From the NCBI GenBank assembly GCA_000182565.2, contig KQ257450.1: DNA of 64,000 nt. One strand, 5' to 3'. The notes beneath the pieces were generated by a model. The model saw nothing but the letters and a program-made list of their open reading frames with translations, searched no databases and had not been told where the DNA came from. This DNA is from Spizellomyces punctatus DAOM BR117. Its lineage: Eukaryota. A program made the translations under genes and the position numbers. The first letter of the stretch is position 1. Each line of letters starts with the position of its first letter. Below, piece after piece: positions 4,101 to 41,000 of this stretch.

Positions 4101-5856
4101 TGAAGTAGCCCCAGCGCTCTAGCTCGGTCCGGATGCATGCCGAGAACTGGTACACTGGCGACATCTGAAAGCTCCGTCGCCGTCTCCTGGGGTGCGGACG
4201 ATTGGCGTGTATTCGATTCCTTTAGATAGAGAAGTACCACCGAGGAAGTGATGGTTCGACGTAGGCAAATCGTCAGTTGATGCTGCAGTGCTTTCAAACC
4301 GCTGCTCAGACGCCTCAGACCCTGCCAGACATGCCCACCCAACCCTGAAGCGTCTCAACTGTCATTGGTCATGCATTTGCTGCGATTCAGCCGGTTCAGC
4401 ACAGCGATGTGGTACGGGCGCCGCGGCTCTCTGCACGATTACGCATCACCGACCGCTCGCCCCTAACCTCAGCGCCACCCAGTACCTTCGCTTCCCCCCA
4501 AATCCGGTCCCAGAGACTTCTGAACCAGAACGCTTTCTCGCCGTCCCACCCAAACCGGCCAGCCCAAAAACATGCTGAAACTGTTGCTGGAAATACGCAA
4601 TCGTGATCTGTACCTTTTTGAGCTCTTCGACCTGGTGCGGCTTTTGCTGGTCTGACGTCGTTCCGCGGCCGAGCGGCCTATCTTCCCGATCTTCGGGATC
4701 AGCTGGGCGATTGCGACCGACTTTATCCTGTACCATATCACGCGCAGGGGCTCGTCGTTCGGACCTCAGAGGCAATGACGAACCTACTTGCTTGTCAGCA
4801 GAATGTGAATCTTTCTCCGATGCGACTGAACGCGAAGAAGACTGACGAATTTCGGGTCTTTCAACATCCTCTCGGTCCCGTGTGCCAGCTGCCTTCTGTC
4901 GGCCATTAGCATCGTCACGAGCATCACGGTGACGGTCCCGGCTTTCATGAGTCTCCCTAACAGGAGTTCTACCTGAGTCCCGCGGAGGACGTGAAAGAGC
5001 TTGATGATCTTCTCGGGGATCGGGTCGTCGTGGTGGAGTGCGACGAGACGACGTTGCCGACTCACCACGCTTCTCAACTGGCTGTGTAGATCTGACTGCA
5101 TCTCGTACCTCTGGATACATGTCCGCCTCTCTACGTTGTCTGGGAGCATCTACGGAGACGACATCAGGAGAAGGATAAGAAAGGAACTAAGAGGTGCTTC
5201 CTGATGTTGCTTCCGTACCGTTTGTCCTTTCCTGGCTCACCGTCGATTCATGACTGCGCACTGGCGTTCTCGCTGATGGACGCTGCTCTCTGCGCGGAGG
5301 AGACCTCCTCGGAGACCTTGGACGATCGACACCACGGTCCACCCGCGGCTGTCTGGCGCCCCTGTCGTTCAGGCGACGGTCCCGGTGCCTGTCTGTGTCT
5401 GCCCTCTCTCTGCTCCTCTCCCGCTCCCTGTTCCTTTCCCTCTCTCGGTCTCGCTCTCTTTCTCGGTCTCTTGAACGCTCCATTTCCCTGTCCCCCGGAT
5501 CTCCAACCTTCCGAGGAGCGTTGCCATCGTCGCTCAATCGAGTGGGTCGTGCGATAGGTTCGTCTCTCTCAATTCGACTACGTTTATAAGATCTTTCTGA
5601 TGCTGAAAGTGGAGGATCCCGCTGTCTAGCGGACAATCTCCCGTCACCGTGACTTCGAGGAGGAGATTGGCTGCGCGTTCTTCTTCTGCAAGACGACGAT
5701 CGCGTCAGTATTTTATGCAGCCAAACATACTTAGAGGAATGCTTACTCTGATGCAGCTGTCTCTGTCCTTGGATGTTTGGCGTCAGAGTAGTCAAAGTCT
5801 AGCTCGTCATCCTCGTCGCCTAAAATGTCGTCGAGAATATTGACGGTTCCAGACAT
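1176..5856 (-). CDS. Large multi-exon YTH-domain RNA-binding protein with Arg/Asp/Glu-rich low-complexity regions (YTHDC1-like architecture)
   Basis: ATG at 5856 (MSGTVNILDDILGDEDDELDF). Spliced exons at about 3040-3765 give RYFVLISPNYDMIKQSQNT/NAFATTPAISTKLSEAYR/NSRDVMLFFTVKGSRRWQG/YARMTTDIG...DIHQGKLAPIINSLAEGKSVKLSDDGE/EISEDAGNDLCRLL, which is colinear with the YTH fold. RE/RD-rich flanks. The last exon GMPYPPPSHPQQPYRNRRR ends at TAA 1176. Confidence 0.8.
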
Positions 5857-6171
5857 TCTCGTTGCGACCGTTATCCTAATGTCGACAAGATGTGAGACAT
5901 ATGCCCATACATACCATGATTCCAGCATCCATGTCTTGTATCTGTCCGTCACTTACACTAATCTGCTTGTCGAGATTTGCCAAAACGATGGTAGGAGCTG
6001 CAGTTGAAAGTCGTGAGTGCAAGCAAAAACGTGTCAGCGCACGAAATCGAAATATTCAAAAGGTGACTTTGCCACATTCGAACCAATTCCGTTGACGGCT
6101 CGTTGCTTCTGCCATCTTCCCCATTCGTCTTTTCCATTTGTTTTTGCAAAAGGAATGTCAATGTCTACTGT

Positions 6172-7614
6172 ATGGATATGGTACGTGTGCTGCTCAGCGT
6201 AATGTATTGTGTACCGGCTTGACGTTATCTCTCACATCACATTATGTAGAGCTTTTCACCAGGTGGACGCCGACATGTTTCTGCCCCAGGTCCGAATGGT
6301 CAGATAACATTGCATATCCGTAAGAGGCTTAACCTTCAATGAATATCTTATAGGTGGCGATAGCCTGGGGAATATATTTGCCGATACCCCTCCTTCCCCT
6401 GTGCCGAGTCGACGTATCTTACATAGTCCGGGTGGACGAAGCTCTTTGGACTTGTTCACCGACTGTGCTACACCCGAGGCACCCAGATCTTCAATCAAGC
6501 TGGCTGCTCCGCCAGGTTGGTCAAAAAGTTTCAAAATAGTGGCCTTTCATTTTTGTTTCCTATTATTTTGGTAAACCTCTGTCCTTTTGAAGGCGGCCAA
6601 ACATCTGTAAGCCTCGCTGGCGGTGGTACGCCAAATATGACACGGTCGATAAAAGTGATACAGCCTGCAGGGGGGATTACTTCGGTTAGTTTAGATGGTG
6701 CCGGAGAATTGGATCTTTCGCCTTCCATCAGACCAATGGCACCGCCTGGTACGTTTGATGCGTCATTACCATGACGATCATCTCGACCTCTAATGGTTAT
6801 CTCTATGTAGGCGGTAAAACGTCCCTGAACTTGGATGGTTCGGGGCAGGTACCTGTCTCGCCTCACATCCGAACCATTGCCCCTCCAGGTGGGTGTACTC
6901 ATGCGTGTAGAGTAAAATGGTGGGACATTGTTGAGTCCTGAAACTGCATTGAAATCAGGTGGCAAAACCTCGTTGACATTGGACGGAGCTGGCCAAGTGC
7001 CAATTCATTCGTCAATCAAAACTCTGGCTGCACCCGGAGGGATAGCAACTGTTAGTCTCGCGGGTGCAGGTTCACCTCCACATACTCCAAGCATTCGGAC
7101 CCGTCATGCACCCGGCGGTCCAACGACGTTGGACCTAGCAGGACGAGGAACCGAACCCATGACTCCTCCACCATCCATCAAACCGCGAGCACCACCGGGT
7201 GGTGTTTCAAGCTTGGACCTAAGTGGCAGTGGAAGCCCGGATGGGCGGTCATTTAGTGGACGGCGCATGGTCATATCACCCCGAGGATCGAATGTCATTG
7301 GGCCATATGACGATGAGACCGAAGAGGGGATACAATCCCTGACTGAGCGATTCCAGGCTGCTGAACTGTATGAGGGAGAGCAATTGCCGGGACGTCGACC
7401 GAGTTGGAAAGACCGTCATGAAGAGGAGGATGATGAGTTTGTACCAGGTGCATTAGCCTATCAGTCAGCGCTTCCTCCAGTTCACCGTAGCCAAATTGTC
7501 ATTGGGGACGACAGCCCCGATAGCTCCCCTCTTACACCACAATCCAATGGCAGACCACATCATATCCGCGTCCAGCAAGCACCGGGCGGTACGAGTAGCA
7601 TATCATTCATGTAG
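6172..7614 (+). CDS. PGG-repeat protein (Jupiter/HN1/SPIRAL1-like motifs), putative microtubule-associated protein
   Basis: Exons 6172-6180, 6250-6289, 6354-6515, 6593-6748, 6811-6888 and 6959-7614 join in frame with GT-AG introns. They encode about 10 repeats of [S/H]I[K/R]xxxPPGGx[T/S]S[L/V]xL and end in RVQQAPGGTSSISFM*. Confidence 0.75.
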
Positions 7615-7960
7615 AATATAGAAATTCCTCAAAACACAAAAATTTAGACTTTTTGACTCCCGCGTGGTCCGTCTTTGTGGCACAGTTGTGCACATGGATG
7701 GCACAGTCATGCGATACTGTCTCTCGTGAGCGCAGATTGTGTTCGTTTTTTGCTGGGCGCAATTTGCTTTGTTTTTATCACGATTTGTTTTTTTTTATAG
7801 CGCTATCGCTCGATTTTGACTTTTTCTGTGTAATTGCGCGGATGGACGTCCGTGGACGGGGAGTGCGACATTGGTGATTTGACGGGGATGTTGGGTTAAC
7901 AGAATTATAAAAGGATGGGGGGGCTTCCCCTCCCCCGTTGACAGGTTGTCACTTGGTAAA

Positions 7961-35048: not shown

Positions 35049-38000
35049 CTACTTCAAACCCTTCAAAAACTCTCCAACATCCAGATCTTCATACTGGTCC
35101 TGATCGGCCAGCTCTTCCAGACCTTCCAAAACGTCCTTTGCGGTCGCCTTTTTGGATTTGTCTTGTTTCGGTTTAGCGGATTCGGATGGACCTCCGATGG
35201 AGAAGAGATCCAAGATTTGATCAGTGTCCATTGATCGAAGGCCGGCGTTTTCTTGGTTGATAACTGAGGAGGCAATGTTGAGTTTAAACTTTTGGAGCCT
35301 GTGTGAGAGTGTATAGTGTGAGTCGGTAATGTTTGACAAGAGAGGACAAGAGGAAATAGGATACGGTACCCCATAATCTTTTCCTCCAATGTTCCTTTGG
35401 TTATCAACCGATAAACGTTCACAACTCTCTTCTGTCCAATCCGGTGAGCCCGATCCATGGCCTGCAAATCCTTCATCGGGTTCCAATCATGCTCGACAAA
35501 AATGACCGTATCTGCACCGGTAAGAGTCAATCCCAGCCCTCCGACATGGGTAGTAAGCAGAAGGACATCGATGGAGGCGTCTTGGTTGAATTTGCGGACG
35601 AGATCGTGTCGGGTGCTTGCGTCTGTTGTGCCGTCTAGACGGAGGTAGGAGACACTGGGCATCAAAGTTTTGAACAGATCTTTTTCGATCATGTCTAGCA
35701 TGGGGCGGAGCTGGGCGAAGATTAATGCGCGATGCGGGGCGACGGCGGTGGTGGTTGGGTTACTGGTTGGGTCGACACCTATTCCGCAGTCTTGGAGGAG
35801 CTGGCTATAAATGTGTAATTGAATTGTGAGATATGGTCATGAGTACACACACATATTGCAAGAACCATGGCGACATACCCCAAGGCCTGAATCTTTGGCG
35901 CATGCTCAATATCGCGAATGTGACTTTGGCGGGCACTCAACCATCCCTGCACCTTGTTCCACTGGGGATGGGAAGGATTTACCACCAAAGCAGGATGATT
36001 TACCAACTTCCTCAGGTACTGTAGAGCCTGGAACACATGTCCAGTCTTTCCTCCTTGCTTCTTGGCGACTACATTGCTCTCCTCCACCTCTTCCCCAACC
36101 AAAATCTTTTCAGCGCCTTCCTTGGCCTGGCTCTTGGCGAAATCTTCGTATAATGATTTTTGAAGGTCGCTGAGCTCGCAATAGTAATCTTGAATGATCT
36201 TTGGTGGAAGATCATGCAACACATCTTCCTTCATCCGACGTAGTAGGAAAGGAAGGACTTGCTTGTGCAGGGCTTCCATTGCCAATGCACCTTGTTCCTG
36301 CTCCTTACTTGAACTCTTCGCATCACGGGATGCGAGAATGGGTTTCCCAAACCGATCATTGAACAATCGCTCGGTGCCCAAGAACCCTGGCATGAGGAAA
36401 TCGAACAAGGACCAAAGCTCCAGAACGTTATTCTGGATCGGTGTGCCAGAGAGAATCAATCGGTGGAGGGACTGGATAGATTTCACCGCTTGGGTAATTT
36501 TCGTTTTGGGGTTTTTGATGATATGGCCCTCGTCGAGGATACAGTAGTTGAAGTGGAAGCGTGAGAGCTCGTCAATATCATTGCGGAGAATCTCGTAAGA
36601 GAGGATGACTACGTCGTAGTTGGGGATTTTGCGGCGAATCCTGTGGATATGAGATGTTACACAAGTTCAGAGGGGATCAAGACAGAGAACACTCGTATTC
36701 GGATCCGCTACTCACTCTGCACGCTCTTGGACATTTCCTCCATATATGACTGGTTTTAAGAATTCGGCATAGGTCTGAATCTCATGGGACCAATGACCAG
36801 TCAACGTTGGCGGACAGACAACCAAAGACGGAGCATGGGCACTATCTGGGGTACTCGTCTTCTTATATCTTTCTGCGCGATTATGATGATCGGATGCCAA
36901 CATGCAGATGGACTGCAGGGTTTTCCCAAGACCCATATCTAGTGGAGAAATGGTTAATGCAAAGTGGAACCCAAAGCCGAACAGCTTCACTTACCATCAC
37001 AAAGAATTCCATGCAACCCATACCGATTGAGGAATGCCAACCAACTGATACCTTCCTTTTGGTAACTTCTCAGCTCTGCCTTGATTGGCACTGGCAGCTC
37101 AAACTCCTCCACTTTCTCGCTCCCAATAAGTTGTCCAATGAACTTTCGTTCCTCTTTACGATGCCGTATAAGCTCATCGCTAAATCCTTCTGGATCGGGA
37201 ATTCCACTTTCAAGAGGAACAAGCTTAACCAGCTGCGCAAAGACATTCGTACTGACGAATCTCACTTCCTCGTCTGGATCGGACATGCGACCTAGGACGG
37301 GAATTATGAGGAAGATGATATAAGGAAGGATGCTGTGGTCCATGCCACGGACAATGTGATGGACACATTCCGCAGCACCTTGTCGATACGCAAGGTTATT
37401 TGTGTCGCCAAGGAGAGGAAGGACGTGGTCGACCAGGGCTTGCATTGCGGGCGCAGTGATGACCTGACAAAATGCGGCCATACATCTGGCTGCCATGTGG
37501 CGAACAATGGCAAGTGAAGCGCGCAAACAGCTGGCGACACCGGGAAGAACGGTGATGACCGTGGAGTAGAGGGTAGTGTGCAGGTAGGGTAGTAGTTTAG
37601 ATAGCAAATGAAGGGAGTGAACCAGCTCCTGAGCGTATCCTTCCATAGTGAGATACTTCTCTAGGACTGATGCAATCGGTTGATCCGGTTTTGCGAGTTC
37701 AAGGAGATTTGTCGCTACAAGCGACCAGAGCTTGGGCACTTGTACAAACGCCTCTGCACCGAACCGCTCACAAATCTCACGGAACGCATATTCAGCCCCT
37801 CGAGCAGTGATCGCCCGTGATTTTTTCTCCACCTCCTCAGAGGCTGATAAGGCTGCCGTGTCAGCTTCACTGACAGTATCAGTTACGGTAGAGTCTACCC
37901 CCGGCCCAGCGCTTTTGCGTTTGCCTCTTCCCCCTTTCTTTGCGGCTCCGTTGGTCTTGGTCTTGCGAGACGCGTCTACATCCTCCAACGACGACGAGTT

Positions 38001-41000
38001 CAGCGTCTCATTGAACGTTATGGTAAGTATCCCGTCCTTCTTCTGGATGACTTGCTCCTTGTCTGTTCGTACACTTGGATCCCCGCAGAGGAACGCGGAC
38101 AAATTCTTGATCACTTTCTCGTTGATCGCGACCGGTTTTCCCAATTTAATATTCAGTTCAATAAAACCTGCTACACCGCGTGCGGCACGACTTTGGATAT
38201 CTTCGTTCACCTCTTCTTTCACACTGTTCATGAGAGATCGGATAATTGGGTTGGTTTTTGCTGGCAACCGGCCCATGCGCACCACTGCTGAAGCCATGCT
38301 GGCAAGGACTTGTACCTCCAATTTGCGCTGTGTCTCGCGGAAAGAGTCGATGACCGCTGTAGCTCTTCGGATACGATCTTGGATCTGAGTGGCGGTGCGT
38401 GGGGGGCATGTTGGTGGTATCATCTTGGGTACAACCTGTTGAACGACATGCTCCGCGACTGTTAGAGTGAATACATTTCCAAAGGGCGTAGATGGTCTTT
38501 GTCCCTGGTTGGAAGGGAGCTCGGGTAAGGCCGGGATATCCTTCCCACAGAATTCCGCGCTGGCTGCAAGTAGTCCTTCGCATTCGTTTCGTACAGTCAA
38601 CAGAGGATGCACAAGCTCGCTATATAGTAGGGTCGTGCCAGAATCCGCCTCGGCCAATGATTTCACCATATTTCCCCACAACACATCGGCGAGTGGTACA
38701 CTGTCCAAAACTATCGCTGTCTCTGTCCCGACTTTCGACCCCTGTATTGCATTCCTCTCTTGCCAACAACCCGCCCACTCGTCCAACATGACGTTACAGA
38801 ACACACGATGGCCAACCCAGCCACTGTTGAGATAGGCAGTAACCAGCTCTCGCACGCGCTCTTCTACCTCACTGTCGTCGGTGCCGAATAACGCGCAAAC
38901 CAGTCCGCCCAGTGCTGTAGCACCCGCCAATCGACCTCGGATGACATCGTCCCGCGATATGACTGTTAAATCCTGCTCTGCCATAGCCTTGTCATGCGGT
39001 GATACGTTGAAGCCATCCGTATCTCCACGGCGCTTTTTACCGTGAACGCCCTGTGGTTTAGATGATTGACTTGCTCCAGGGGAATAAAAGAAGCGTAGAT
39101 CCAGCGGAGAACCCACAGGGGTCATGACAAGCGCAAACCATGCTGGTAGAACAGATAGTGTAACGGTTTTCAGCTGTCCTGGTTCCCGAGCATTGTATGC
39201 TTCCATAAACCTCATCAGTTTCTTCCACACTTCAGAGGTGCTTTCGCCAATATCCTTCCTTTCCTCGATGATAAAGTTTTGAAATACGAGCCTCAAGAGT
39301 TCCATGGTCACCCAACTACCATTGCTTCCATACGTTACATCAACAAACGTTGCAACAGTGCGTAGCACTGCTTGTCTAACGGATACGATGGCGTGTCGGA
39401 AAAACGGATATAGGCGCGGTATTAACTCCTGTAAAGAACTGGCCGATTCAGCCTTCATTATTTCCACAATCTCGGGCTTCATCATGAGTTGAGAGAGCAA
39501 GTCCATTACTGATCCAGTTGCTGACGTCAAATCATCTAGCTCTTCCAGGCAATTCCATAGCGTCATGACGATGGAATAGAACACCGTCCTGACAGGCAAG
39601 ATCTTGACTAGGAGATCACAAACTGGTAGTAATGCCGAGGATGATACCGCCCGGACATCGTCGTCATGATCCCGGAGCCTAGTAACGCATTCCATCAGTA
39701 AGCCGTGCGATATACACGAACAGCGAGGTACTTTACCCGTTGATCACAGCCCGGAACAGGGCAGTTTCCTTCCCTTCTTGTTGTGATCCAAACACGTTCG
39801 GTAACAAATCTTTCCGGACAGCCATCCAGTACTTGAGGCCGACCAAGGCACCGTGCCGTACTTGCCAACCCTTGCCACGTCCCCCATGTGCTGTTCCACT
39901 CGCGACAGGTTGTTCTTCGCTTGCTTCGAGGAGCTTCAACAGGCCCTGGTTCACCATCGTTAAGCATAACTCCTGTTCACTCCATTGCATAACAACCCCG
40001 AGCGTCTGGGCTGCAGTCTCACGAACTGGTGCAACCGCCTGGTCGCTACCATAGTCGCCAAAACGATCCAATGCCAGCACGCAAAGAAGCCGAATTGCCA
40101 CATCTTCCAGCCACGCTCTATGACGGGCAGCGTTATCCTTGAGGGGGATGCCAACTAATTTGCCTGCGCCGGAGCCGTGCACTTTGAGCACAGCTCTCAG
40201 TCCGATGGCTGCTCCATGTCGTGTCTCCCAACTTGGGGAAAACAGATCTAAGCAAAGCTGCTCGCACAATCCCTCGAACGGCCATTCGTCGCCTGACTCA
40301 TGAATGGCACCGAGAAACGCGGGTTCTTGTTTCACTTTTGCCTCCACAACGACTTTGTCATCGTTTGGTGGAGTCTCCGTGCTAGGGGAGGTAACCATTG
40401 GACTCCCATTCATAATTGATTCTTCGTCTTCTTGTTTGATTTTGATGGACGCAGTTATGGGCTTGGCATCAGATAGTGATTTCCGTTGCTTCGTTGCTGA
40501 TACCTCTACAATGCGAACTCTAATGCACCAACCTTGTAAACATACAGTAATTTCAGTGCCTGTTAAACGTGACCGACGACTTACTTGCTGCCCCTGTCTT
40601 TGCCCATCATTCTCATTTTTCGCTTTAATGTAGCCTTCTGGCGCTGGCTGAGTCCAGCCATCGAAGGGTCATCATCGGCAATGCCTCTACGAAAGGCATC
40701 ATATGAGCAACCTGCCAATCTCCACACGAGCCACAAAATCATGACACATACCCACGAGTTGACTTTGAGCTAAGGTCTAACAATTGCTGCGCCGATTGCT
40801 GCGTTGATTGGCTTGCATCGGTTGGTGATTTTGCAGATACCACATCCGACTCATCAAGTAGATCTGTGCAGGAACATGAGCGCTCAAAAACGGTGCGTTC
40901 TGCAAACGTAGACTAGCAGTCAGTACATACCTTTCATAAATTCTGTCCCCATTCCCAATCTCTTCTTTAGCTCCTTCTTCTGCAGTGCAATTCGTTCCTT

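Follow-up and report, generated by a model that had tools for sequence, protein, structure and literature searches.

The window analysed here, a stretch of 64,000 nucleotides of contig KQ257450.1 of Spizellomyces punctatus, carries on its plus strand a gene of six exons, at positions 6172-7614, whose spliced coding sequence of 1101 nucleotides (366 codons and a stop) encodes an array of short units centred on the motif PGG. Judged by its sequence, the array motif belongs to the same type as the microtubule-binding motifs given in the JPT and SPIRAL1 literature: PPGGxxSxxF or PPGGK*S for JPT, and GGxSSLxYLFG for SPIRAL1. The reading that we favour, with slightly better than even confidence, is that the product is a multivalent, intrinsically disordered microtubule-associated protein with an expanded array of PGG motifs. 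One plain observation counts against it: neither sequence nor profile comparison ties the protein significantly to a characterised microtubule-associated protein.

The PGG array noticed in the original prediction is confirmed, and all ten of the repeat strings listed there, units of about 26 amino acids, are found in the spliced product. The protein contains ten PGG and one AGG (in QPAGG), with a main pitch of 26-28 residues: the spacings between successive PGG are 9, 26, 28, 52 (twice 26, across the AGG unit), 26, 26, 26, 28 and 129. Shuffling the protein 20,000 times gives 0.8 PGG on average and never more than 5. The unit consensus, taken over 59 units from 11 chytrid proteins, is P-S-I-[RK]-x-L-x-P-P-G-G-x-S-S-[LI]-x-L-x-G-x-G; the relaxed motif [PA]GGxx[ST]xx[LFVIM] occurs nine times in the window protein, and two units, at residues 121-127 and 147-153, read PPGGKTS. 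The degenerate unit of Table 1 has a counterpart in the relatives, where SFSGRR..PPGG is conserved. Tandem Repeats Finder, applied to positions 6100-7700 with a minimum score of 30, detects no repeat in the DNA itself; since the repeat is visible at the protein level only, the duplications are old.

As had been stated at the outset, no single open reading frame spans the array: the longest plus-strand frame in the region, 6916-7614, has 232 amino acids. All five introns of Table 1 have GT..AG borders, each contains an in-frame stop when read through, and the removal of each restores a PGG. Two out-of-frame ATGs, at 6155 and 6161, lie upstream of the start; the protein N-terminus can be aligned to Rhizophlyctis protein P0020 and to Spizellomyces protein P0003, a database model that reads in frame through the counterpart of intron 2.

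The splice model finds partial support in RNA. A contig of 180 nucleotides from RNA run X2 joins 6888 to 6959 (6885/6956, cut +3), with intron 5 spliced out; for introns 1-4, no junction reads were found in the RNA runs checked over the gene, and these introns are based on in-frame stops and orthologue alignments. A contig from run X1, covering 7287-7512 of exon 6, is identical to the window. Raw reads from run X9 pile up on the plus strand at the 3' end, to a depth of up to 109, and their loose poly(A) ends mark two addition sites, from which the 3' UTR measures about 28-37 nucleotides: the transcript is polyadenylated and comes from the plus strand.

It could be argued that the gene model is wrong, or that this protein is not what the locus produces, because of retained introns, another start or a non-coding transcript. 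Spliced RNA is on record for intron 5 only, the two upstream ATGs are out of frame, and low-depth reads of opposite orientation run across 6369-6900, introns included. However, the borders, stops and restored motifs of the introns, the plus-strand poly(A) sites directly after the stop codon, and the end-to-end alignment of the joined product with a Spizellomyces sp. 'palustris' protein and seven other chytrid proteins make such an error very improbable.

Table 1. Features of the gene and of its product, in window coordinates.
Feature	Position	Strand	Remarks
Exon 1	6172-6180	+	start codon, 3 codons; first in-frame ATG; donor GTACGT
Intron 1	6181-6249	+	69 nt, phase 0; GT..AG; stop at 6220 if retained
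Exon 2	6250-6289	+	first PGG and start of the second
Intron 2	6290-6353	+	64 nt, phase 1, within the codon of the first Gly in PGG; stop at 6340 if retained
Exon 3	6354-6515	+	162 nt, two units; GNIF at 6368-6379
Intron 3	6516-6592	+	77 nt, phase 1 in PGG; stop at 6572 if retained
Exon 4	6593-6748	+	156 nt, exactly two 26-codon units
Intron 4	6749-6810	+	62 nt, phase 1 in PGG; stop at 6772 if retained
Exon 5	6811-6888	+	78 nt, exactly one 26-codon unit
Intron 5	6889-6958	+	70 nt, phase 1 in PGG; GT..AG; spliced in RNA
Exon 6	6959-7614	+	last four array units, degenerate unit, acidic linker, conserved block, C-terminal motif, stop codon
Degenerate twelfth unit	7249-7302	+	SFSGRR...SPRG.SNVIG; PRG replaces PGG; alignment A4
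Acidic linker	7252-7557	+	about residues 247-348; pI 4.7 for 247-350
Conserved block	7447-7512	+	GAL.YQSALPP..RSQIVIGDD; best-conserved non-PGG element; highest pLDDT (66-75)
C-terminal unit	7561-7611	+	ends ...APGGTSSISFM-COOH
Poly(A) addition sites	7642; 7651	+	5 reads; 17 reads, agreement 0.99; poly(A) loose ends, run X9

Orthologues of the same architecture are found in at least eight named Chytridiomycota, with E-values from 1.7e-200 to 5e-6. They have in common the basic array of PGG units, the acidic linker, a block of the RSQIVIGDD type and a C-terminal PGGxSSISF motif; the 'palustris' protein and the joined product are 83% identical over 390 columns. Every chytrid orthologue keeps the 26-residue spacing, despite identities of 30-45%, and the spacing is seen again in unnamed PGG arrays from protists. 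Of the 27 sequences compared, 16 have PGG or HGG within the last 12 residues, in a C-terminus of the PGGxSSISF type. As a control, 21 of 26 real proteins match at E<=10 and none of their reversed or shuffled copies do, so the similarity is not mere composition.

Weaker relatives with PGG arrays come from a zoopagomycete (Thamnocephalis P0023) and from protists (P0007, P0012, P0013, P0015 and Chromulina P0008). Like the window protein, they consist of units of the form [RK]-x-x-x-P-G-G-x-[ST]-[ST]-hydrophobic; they carry 8 to 34 PGG per protein and match the window protein with E-values from 4e-13 to 6e-5. In P0007, P0012 and P0015, as here, spacings of 26-27 residues occur often; in P0008 and P0013 the pitch is 30-33 residues. 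These array proteins are longer, lack the chytrid C-terminal module, and are unnamed and uncharacterised. On the question whether homologues are limited to flagellated fungi, the relatives show no strict confinement: among the named fungal relatives listed, eight of nine are Chytridiomycota, and the other, Thamnocephalis, is non-flagellated. A scan of metagenome contigs with alignment A4 returned 139 pattern matches, none of which was confirmed.

The pI of the whole protein is 6.4, and that of the array, roughly the N-terminal two thirds, is a basic 10.0. AlphaFold2, run on the final exon and an alignment of 10 sequences, yields a pLDDT of 51.4 and a pTM of 0.15 with almost no secondary structure, and the protein is predicted to be intrinsically disordered. 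A folded beta-solenoid of the 26-residue repeat was considered and ruled out: the AlphaFold2 model, computed from a shallow alignment of 10 rows, has no strands and a pLDDT of about 50, and the proline content is 13%. The protein has 16 [ST]P sites, compared to 9.3 +/- 2.5 in shuffles, and 38 of 5000 shuffles reach 16.

If the product is indeed a microtubule-associated protein, its layout suggests how it most likely works: eleven short linear motifs, repeated every 26 residues, form a basic array, followed by the acidic linker and by a motif at the extreme C-terminus. A single unit would be a weak tubulin-binding peptide, and the array would engage several neighbouring tubulin sites together, avidity adding strength. 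Such multivalent binding would stabilise or mark microtubules, and the proline-directed Ser/Thr sites between units would allow release by phosphorylation. We thus infer both tubulin binding and regulation by phosphorylation; homology to Jupiter and SPR1 is suggested by the shared motif. The putative site, by analogy, would be either the taxane pocket in the lumen, which has been proposed for JPT2, or the outer lattice or plus end, as for SPR1. In the cell, the microtubules concerned may be those of the zoospore axoneme, the rootlet or the rhizoid, as the original prediction had suggested.

The link to Jupiter/JPT and SPIRAL1 drawn in the original prediction stands in part: the units agree with the JPT2 motifs in the literature and resemble the SPR1 repeat, but the Pfam family JUPITER is matched below threshold only. 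A scan of four in-frame pieces of the window exons finds no Pfam family at E<=10, JUPITER (PF17054) included, with 0 of 4 pieces matching. Among 21 relatives, two match JUPITER, P0001 with 14.1 bits and P0013 with 18.4 bits, both short of the gathering cut-off of 27 bits; both matches fall on profile positions 14-44, the sole Pfam region matched by PGG units of the relatives (E-values of 0.033 and 0.0017). In the Atlas, the closest clusters that bear a name are Jupiter and JPT2, with scores of 0.83-0.84, and DUF4057 is a neighbour at 0.81-0.84, all in the range below 0.9 where scores rank as leads only. At E<=10, neither DUF4057 (PF13266, plants) nor the tau/MAP2 repeat family is matched in Pfam by the window pieces or by the relatives (21 for tau/MAP2), and no tau chain is matched in the PDB. 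The best PDB matches, to a CFAP52 WD40 blade, a nanobody and a mucin, were judged to be chance (best E-values of 1.3 with P0001, 0.3 with the family profile A2 and 0.91 with the six-unit profile A5).

No Jupiter, JPT or SPR1 protein is among the sequence-search matches, and no link from the window protein to SPIRAL1 appears by this route. A profile search with alignment A2 over the best 8000 candidates lists 12 proteins, none of them named Jupiter, JPT or SPR1; a homologue search with the N-terminal 60 residues of P0009 gave three candidates, of which the query itself alone matched.

These results could be read as convergence, the array being a lineage-specific repeat rich in Pro, Gly and Ser, with another partner (a polymer, a membrane or a nucleic acid) or with a purely structural role. 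The links to known microtubule-associated proteins are all sub-threshold or at the level of the motif, a string as short as P-G-G-x-S-S can recur independently in low-complexity sequence, and the orthologues are, without exception, named 'hypothetical'. However, the match exceeds PGG: it includes an upstream basic residue, the tail S-S-[LI]-x-[LF], and an exact C-terminal copy as in JPT2. Furthermore, JUPITER alone recurs among the Pfam matches of the relatives, in the same profile region both times, and the reversed and shuffled controls are clean. We consider convergence unlikely.

Another alternative retains the kind of motif and shifts the main role to that of a scaffold or small-ligand adaptor that is disordered and phase-separates, microtubule contact being secondary. 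According to one paper, JPT2 is fully disordered, with four PPGGxxSxxF motifs and MASNIF, binds NAADP, and phase-separates to form liquid condensates (10.64898/2026.01.10.698830). Disorder is predicted for the window protein as well, and its multivalency and segregated basic and acidic blocks favour condensation. On the other hand, a recent result of a second paper is that the PPGG motifs of JPT2 themselves localise to microtubules, carrying the protein onto, and probably into, them in competition with taxanes (PMC12773733). The present analysis gave no sign of NAADP binding, and a pitch of 26 residues maintained across divergent chytrids suggests a periodic partner, not a liquid scaffold. That scaffolding should be the main role thus seems to us quite improbable, and the multivalent microtubule-associated protein remains our preferred reading.

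The neighbouring genes offer no functional hint. The flanking open reading frames match no Pfam family, and no tubulin is encoded among the window frames scanned. At a greater distance there are ERG4/ERG24, a NAT domain, LCCL, a hamartin-like frame, WD40, SNF2 with DUF3535 and HEAT, and a dynamin-like frame.

Taking the chytrid and protist arrays together, it is tempting to conjecture that the P-P-G-G-x-S-S-hydrophobic unit is a tubulin-lattice peptide of ancient, pan-eukaryotic origin, of which chytrids and several protist lineages keep the ancestral long arrays. Under this conjecture, the ancestral form would have had 8-34 units with a constant pitch of about 26 residues; this pitch, in extended form, would span adjacent tubulin dimer or protofilament sites, the array acting as a staple or a ruler along or inside microtubules. 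The phase-1 introns in PGG and the exons of one or two units would record growth by exon duplication, and Jupiter/JPT and SPIRAL1 would be reduced descendants with two to four units. We hold this conjecture, taken as a whole, as tentative and rather doubtful. The chytrid and protist arrays could be a bridge that unites the families of animals and plants. In the literature searched, no paper pairs Jupiter with chytrids, and SPIRAL1 and JPT1 appear in no common paper. The eleven-unit chytrid family and the protist arrays, with up to 34 units, would provide a natural multivalent version in which to study how the motif reads the lattice, and the chytrid family would be a candidate for regulating those microtubule arrays which chytrids remodel between zoospore and sporangium.

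We now turn to the known systems. Tau, MAP2 and MAP4 have tandem, disordered, lattice-binding repeats with PGG(G), of which PGG alone is common to the window protein; the JPT2 and SPR1 papers both liken their motifs to tau-type repeats (PMC12773733; 10.1101/521047).

SPIRAL1 is a small, disordered microtubule-associated protein with one repeat copy after PGGG. The direct repeat of SPR1, GG(G/H)(Q/-)SSL(G/D/N/S/H)YLFG, is given for both termini of a protein of about 100-120 amino acids in one paper (PMC9959322); another describes SPR1 as plant-specific, with about 119 amino acids and two copies, and as an autonomous plus-end tracker (10.1101/521047). The window unit PGGRSSLDLF (residues 42-51) is near the SPIRAL1/SP1L consensus GG-x-SSL-x-(Y)LF, but this closest unit is internal, the YLFG ending is missing, and the protein has 366 amino acids against about 119. 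The second of these papers reports that, in plus-end tracking by SPR1, the N-terminal GGG matters and PGGG is dispensable (10.1101/521047); it is therefore unsafe to adopt as a rule that PGG means microtubule binding.

The comparison with Jupiter/JPT is closer in the motif than in the overall design. That known proteins carry only a few copies agrees with the literature, which gives four for JPT2 and two for SPR1; the window protein has 11-12 against the four of JPT2. Its size is double that of JPT2; unlike the small basic JPT proteins, it is not basic overall, and it has in addition a strict 26-residue pitch, a long acidic linker and the RSQIVIGDD-type block. Most of its units end in L, where those of Jupiter/JPT end in F: the strict motif PPGGxxSxxF does not occur in it, and PGGxxSxxF occurs once, in the C-terminal unit. 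The likenesses are those of a protein, predicted here to be disordered, that repeats P-P-G-G-x-x-S-x-x-[F/L] with a basic residue ahead. Of the MASNIF of JPT, the window protein recalls only the end, with GNIF at residues 22-25, after the N-terminal motif; the relatives have SNIF or NIFS. The JPT family motif is given as PPGGK*S, with the microtubule-binding C-terminal peptide LNPPGGKSSISFY; in JPT2, the C-terminal 13-mer localises to microtubules and loses this localisation when the motifs are deleted (PMC12773733). Both proteins place the motif at the very C-terminus, as ...APGGTSSISFM in the window protein and as ...PPGGKSSISFY in JPT2 (PMC12773733).

No single open reading frame spans the PGG-repeat array at 6172-7614, as the original prediction had it: the longest frame on the + strand of this region covers only 6916-7614, or 232 amino acids. 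Splicing six segments of the + strand yields a reading frame of 1101 nt, that is, 366 codons and a stop. All five introns (69, 64, 77, 62 and 70 nt, in order) have GT..AG boundaries, and each contains an in-frame stop when read on from the exon before it: the long frame thus requires the removal of all five. Introns 2 to 5 are of phase 1 and split the first glycine codon of a PGG (residues 17, 71, 123 and 149); together with the unit-sized exons, this is the pattern that duplication of a one-unit exon, followed by partial loss of introns, would be expected to leave.

Exons of the PGG-repeat gene and other frames of the window
Feature	Position	Strand	Content
Exon 1	6172-6180	+	part of the joined reading frame
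Exon 2	6250-6289	+	part of the joined reading frame
Exon 3	6354-6515	+	162 nt, two units of 26 and 28 codons
Exon 4	6593-6748	+	156 nt, exactly two units
Exon 5	6811-6888	+	78 nt, exactly one 26-codon unit
Exon 6 (last exon, 217 aa)	6959-7614	+	part of the joined reading frame
Arg/Glu/Ser-rich frame	5187-5798	-	RS/RE-type low complexity, Arg-Asp/Glu-Arg and Ser repeats; no Pfam family; possibly part of a splicing-related gene
Frame with signal-peptide-like start	~7961	+	no Pfam family
Adjacent frames	35779-40668	-	SNF2-related domain, DUF3535, HEAT repeats; look like one large intron-containing Mot1/BTAF1-type gene

Two out-of-frame ATGs, at 6155 and 6161, precede the start codon (window 6155-6180). 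RNA coverage starts around them, in the bin 6101-6167, and their frame ends at the exon 1/2 junction once intron 1 is removed; translation may be lowered by the short ORF so formed. Neither flanking ORF belongs to a Pfam family, and the more distant genes are ordinary housekeeping genes; as expected at a eukaryotic locus, the neighbours give no functional hint for the PGG gene.

A few public sequencing runs carry this stretch; four of them were compared with it over 5900-7900. Raw RNA reads of run X9, which bears the same species label as the DNA holders, reach a depth of up to 109 across 7300-7640, in a single orientation. Their loose poly(A) ends lie behind 7642 (5 reads) and behind 7651 (17 reads, agreement 0.99); the genome past 7651 is T-rich, and the poly(A) is therefore the real tail of an mRNA from the + strand, whose 3' UTR measures about 28-37 nt. 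In run X2, whose type is recorded as 'RNA?', a guess, a 180-nt contig joins 6888 to 6959 with GT..AG, which is exactly intron 5, and a 226-nt contig of the root-metagenome RNA run X1 is identical to the window across 7287-7512. The predicted splice model is thus borne out at intron 5, and not at introns 1 to 4, where there are no junction reads and X9 coverage is thin. These four rest on the in-frame stops, the PGG restored at each junction and the orthologue alignments; a wrong gene model is a very unlikely rival reading. P0003, the relative in Spizellomyces sp. 'palustris', can be aligned with the joined protein from one end to the other (83% identity, 390 columns), and those of Gaertneriomyces (P0001), Rhizophlyctis (P0020) and Powellomyces (P0004) over nearly its full length, N-terminus included.

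Over 6369-6900, X9 reads are of low depth (up to about 7), run opposite to the pile at the 3' end, and cover exons 3 to 5 as well as introns: antisense RNA, unspliced pre-mRNA and DNA carry-over are the possibilities. The same run has a T>G at 6646 in three of five reads of one orientation. A contig of run X3, with a depth as low as 3.3, is one base short at 7087, in the last exon; the frame would be shifted there, but at such a depth the gap may stem from the assembly.

Every repeat string of the original prediction is found in the spliced product. The array is real: the protein contains 10 PGG and one AGG, and 20,000 shuffles of it give a mean of 0.8 PGG and a maximum of 5. Nine units match [PA]GGxx[ST]xx[LFVIM], and the spacings from PGG to PGG are, in order, 9, 26, 28, 52 (2x26, spanning the AGG unit), 26, 26, 26, 28 and 129. 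Gly, Pro and Ser account for 13.1% of the residues each; positions 1-246 are basic (pI 10.0), 247-350 acidic (pI 4.7) and the final 16 basic. Since no repeat is detectable in the DNA of the gene region, the copies are old.

The last exon (217 aa), used in an exhaustive phmmer search, has 15 protein matches at E<=0.001, to which word-indexed searches added Rhizophlyctis and Thamnocephalis. In a control for composition, 21 of 26 proteins matched the joined protein at E<=10, and of the reversed and shuffled copies of these 26 none did. Eight of the nine named fungal relatives are chytrids (Spizellomyces sp. 'palustris', Gaertneriomyces sp. JEL0708, Powellomyces hirtus, Rhizophlyctis rosea, Quaeritorhiza haematococci, Chytridium lagenaria, Dinochytrium kinnereticum and Irineochytrium annulatum). 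Every clear orthologue is thus from a chytrid, and the relatives place the window in a Spizellomyces-like chytrid; among the named fungi, Quaeritorhiza and Thamnocephalis had their taxonomy checked. All eight chytrid proteins are annotated 'hypothetical protein'.

The chytrid relatives have one architecture in common (alignments A1 and A4). An RxxxPPGGxSS[FI]S[FL] motif at the N-terminus is followed by four to nine internal units and by a degenerate unit, SFSGRR..PPGG; then come an acidic stretch, the conserved block G-A-L-x-x-Q-x-x-L-P-x-x-x-R-S-x-[IV]-V-x-x-D-D and, at the C-terminus, an RRxxxxPGGxSSxSF motif. The unit consensus, from 59 units of 11 chytrid proteins, is P-S-I-[RK]-x-L-x-P-P-G-G-x-S-S-[LI]-[SD]-L-x-G-x-G-x-x-P, and its pitch of 26 (+/-1) residues is kept in every chytrid protein despite a mere 30-45% identity. 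Two database models deserve mention. The deposited 447-aa model of P0003 has a 57-residue N-terminal extension, reading through sequence that is upstream and non-coding in the window, and a 21-residue insert at the position of intron 2; it seems mis-built. That of Chytridium lagenaria (P0009, 225 aa), probably truncated, has neither the acidic linker nor the PGG motif at the C-terminus, both present in all other chytrid orthologues.

A restriction to flagellated fungi is not borne out for the motif array as such. Weaker relatives (E 4e-13 to 6e-5 against the joined protein) have PGG arrays of greater length. They include a protein of the chrysophyte Chromulina nebulosa and unnamed ones from transcriptomes or metagenomes, which contain 8 to 34 PGG, several spaced by 26-27 residues. 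The relative from the non-flagellated zoopagomycete Thamnocephalis (P0023) appears at E 4.9e-7 in the family-profile search only, and is not among the matches to the joined protein.

None of four pieces of the window protein matches the Pfam family JUPITER (PF17054) at E<=10. Two of 21 relatives match it, both below its cut-off of 27 bits: P0001, residues 18-45 against profile positions 17-44 (E 0.033, 14.1 bits), and P0013, an unnamed protist PGG-array protein, residues 265-291 against positions 14-40 (E 0.0017, 18.4 bits). Window pieces and relatives have no Pfam matches to tau/MAP2 or DUF4057, and structure-database searches found no PDB relative. In a protein-language-model Atlas, Jupiter and JPT2 clusters and plant DUF4057 are among the closest named neighbours (0.81-0.84, scores rated as leads only). 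The disordered tail of CRMP5 (dihydropyrimidinase-related protein 5; PDB chain 4b90_A, residues 537-583) ends its resolved sequence in ...RASARILAPPGGRSS, a motif that resembles the unit; the match is insignificant (E 1.2). As CRMPs are described as microtubule regulators (review PMC13406575), the motif may extend beyond the Jupiter family.

AlphaFold2, applied to the last exon with 10 aligned sequences, gives a mean pLDDT of 51.4, a pTM of 0.15 and essentially no secondary structure; the RSQIVIGDD-type conserved block alone reaches 66-75. On this prediction, a disordered chain with eleven to twelve short linear motifs is the most fitting picture of the protein. Such a chain might, on a less likely rival reading, be a condensate scaffold or a ligand adaptor; the strictly kept pitch of 26 residues speaks for a partner that is itself periodic. 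If the units act as in JPT2, each would bind tubulin weakly as a short peptide, and the array could bind several lattice sites at once. An extended chain measures about 0.34-0.38 nm per residue, so 26 residues reach about 9 nm: the pitch could span either the dimer repeat of 8 nm along a protofilament or the lateral spacing of about 5 nm. The sites might lie in the lumen, where those of JPT2 have been proposed to lie, or, like those of SPR1, on the outer surface or at the plus end. In the linkers there are 16 [ST]P sites; shuffled sequences have 9.3 +/- 2.5, and a count of 16 is reached in 38 of 5000. This is compatible with control by proline-directed kinases.

The literature searched never combines Jupiter, microtubule and chytrid, or SPIRAL1 and JPT1; DUF4057 is mentioned in three papers, in none of them in the title or abstract. 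We have an uncharacterised conserved chytrid family, its orthologues all unnamed, in which a microtubule-binding motif known from elsewhere is expanded into a regular array, with a putative function in microtubule binding.

The final three motifs of JPT2 are PPGGK*S; deleting them abolishes its microtubule localisation, its C-terminal 13-mer LNPPGGKSSISFY goes to microtubules, in an AlphaFold3 model this 13-mer occupies the beta-tubulin pocket for taxanes, and JPT2 is displaced by taxanes (PMC12773733, restated in PMC13406575). Plant SPR1/SP1L proteins are described as having a direct repeat GG(G/H)(Q/-)SSL(G/D/N/S/H)YLFG at both ends, one copy behind PGGG (PMC9959322), and SPR1 as tracking plus ends autonomously, for which the N-terminal GGG is required and PGGG is dispensable (10.1101/521047). 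The predicted likeness to both stands at the level of motifs. The cut-off of the Pfam profile JUPITER is unreached, and membership in that family goes beyond what these tests support; a convergent repeat that binds another partner is a less likely rival reading. The window protein ends in ...APGGTSSISFM, which fits PGGxxSxxF at the exact C-terminus, as in JPT2; a C-terminal motif of PGG type, within 12 residues of the end, is found in 16 of the 27 sequences compared. Two of its units read PPGGKTS, PGGRSSLDLF, inside the array, comes near the repeat of SPR1, and GNIF follows the protein's second PGG. We conclude that the protein probably works like those of the Jupiter/JPT-SPR1 kind and probably shares a module with them.
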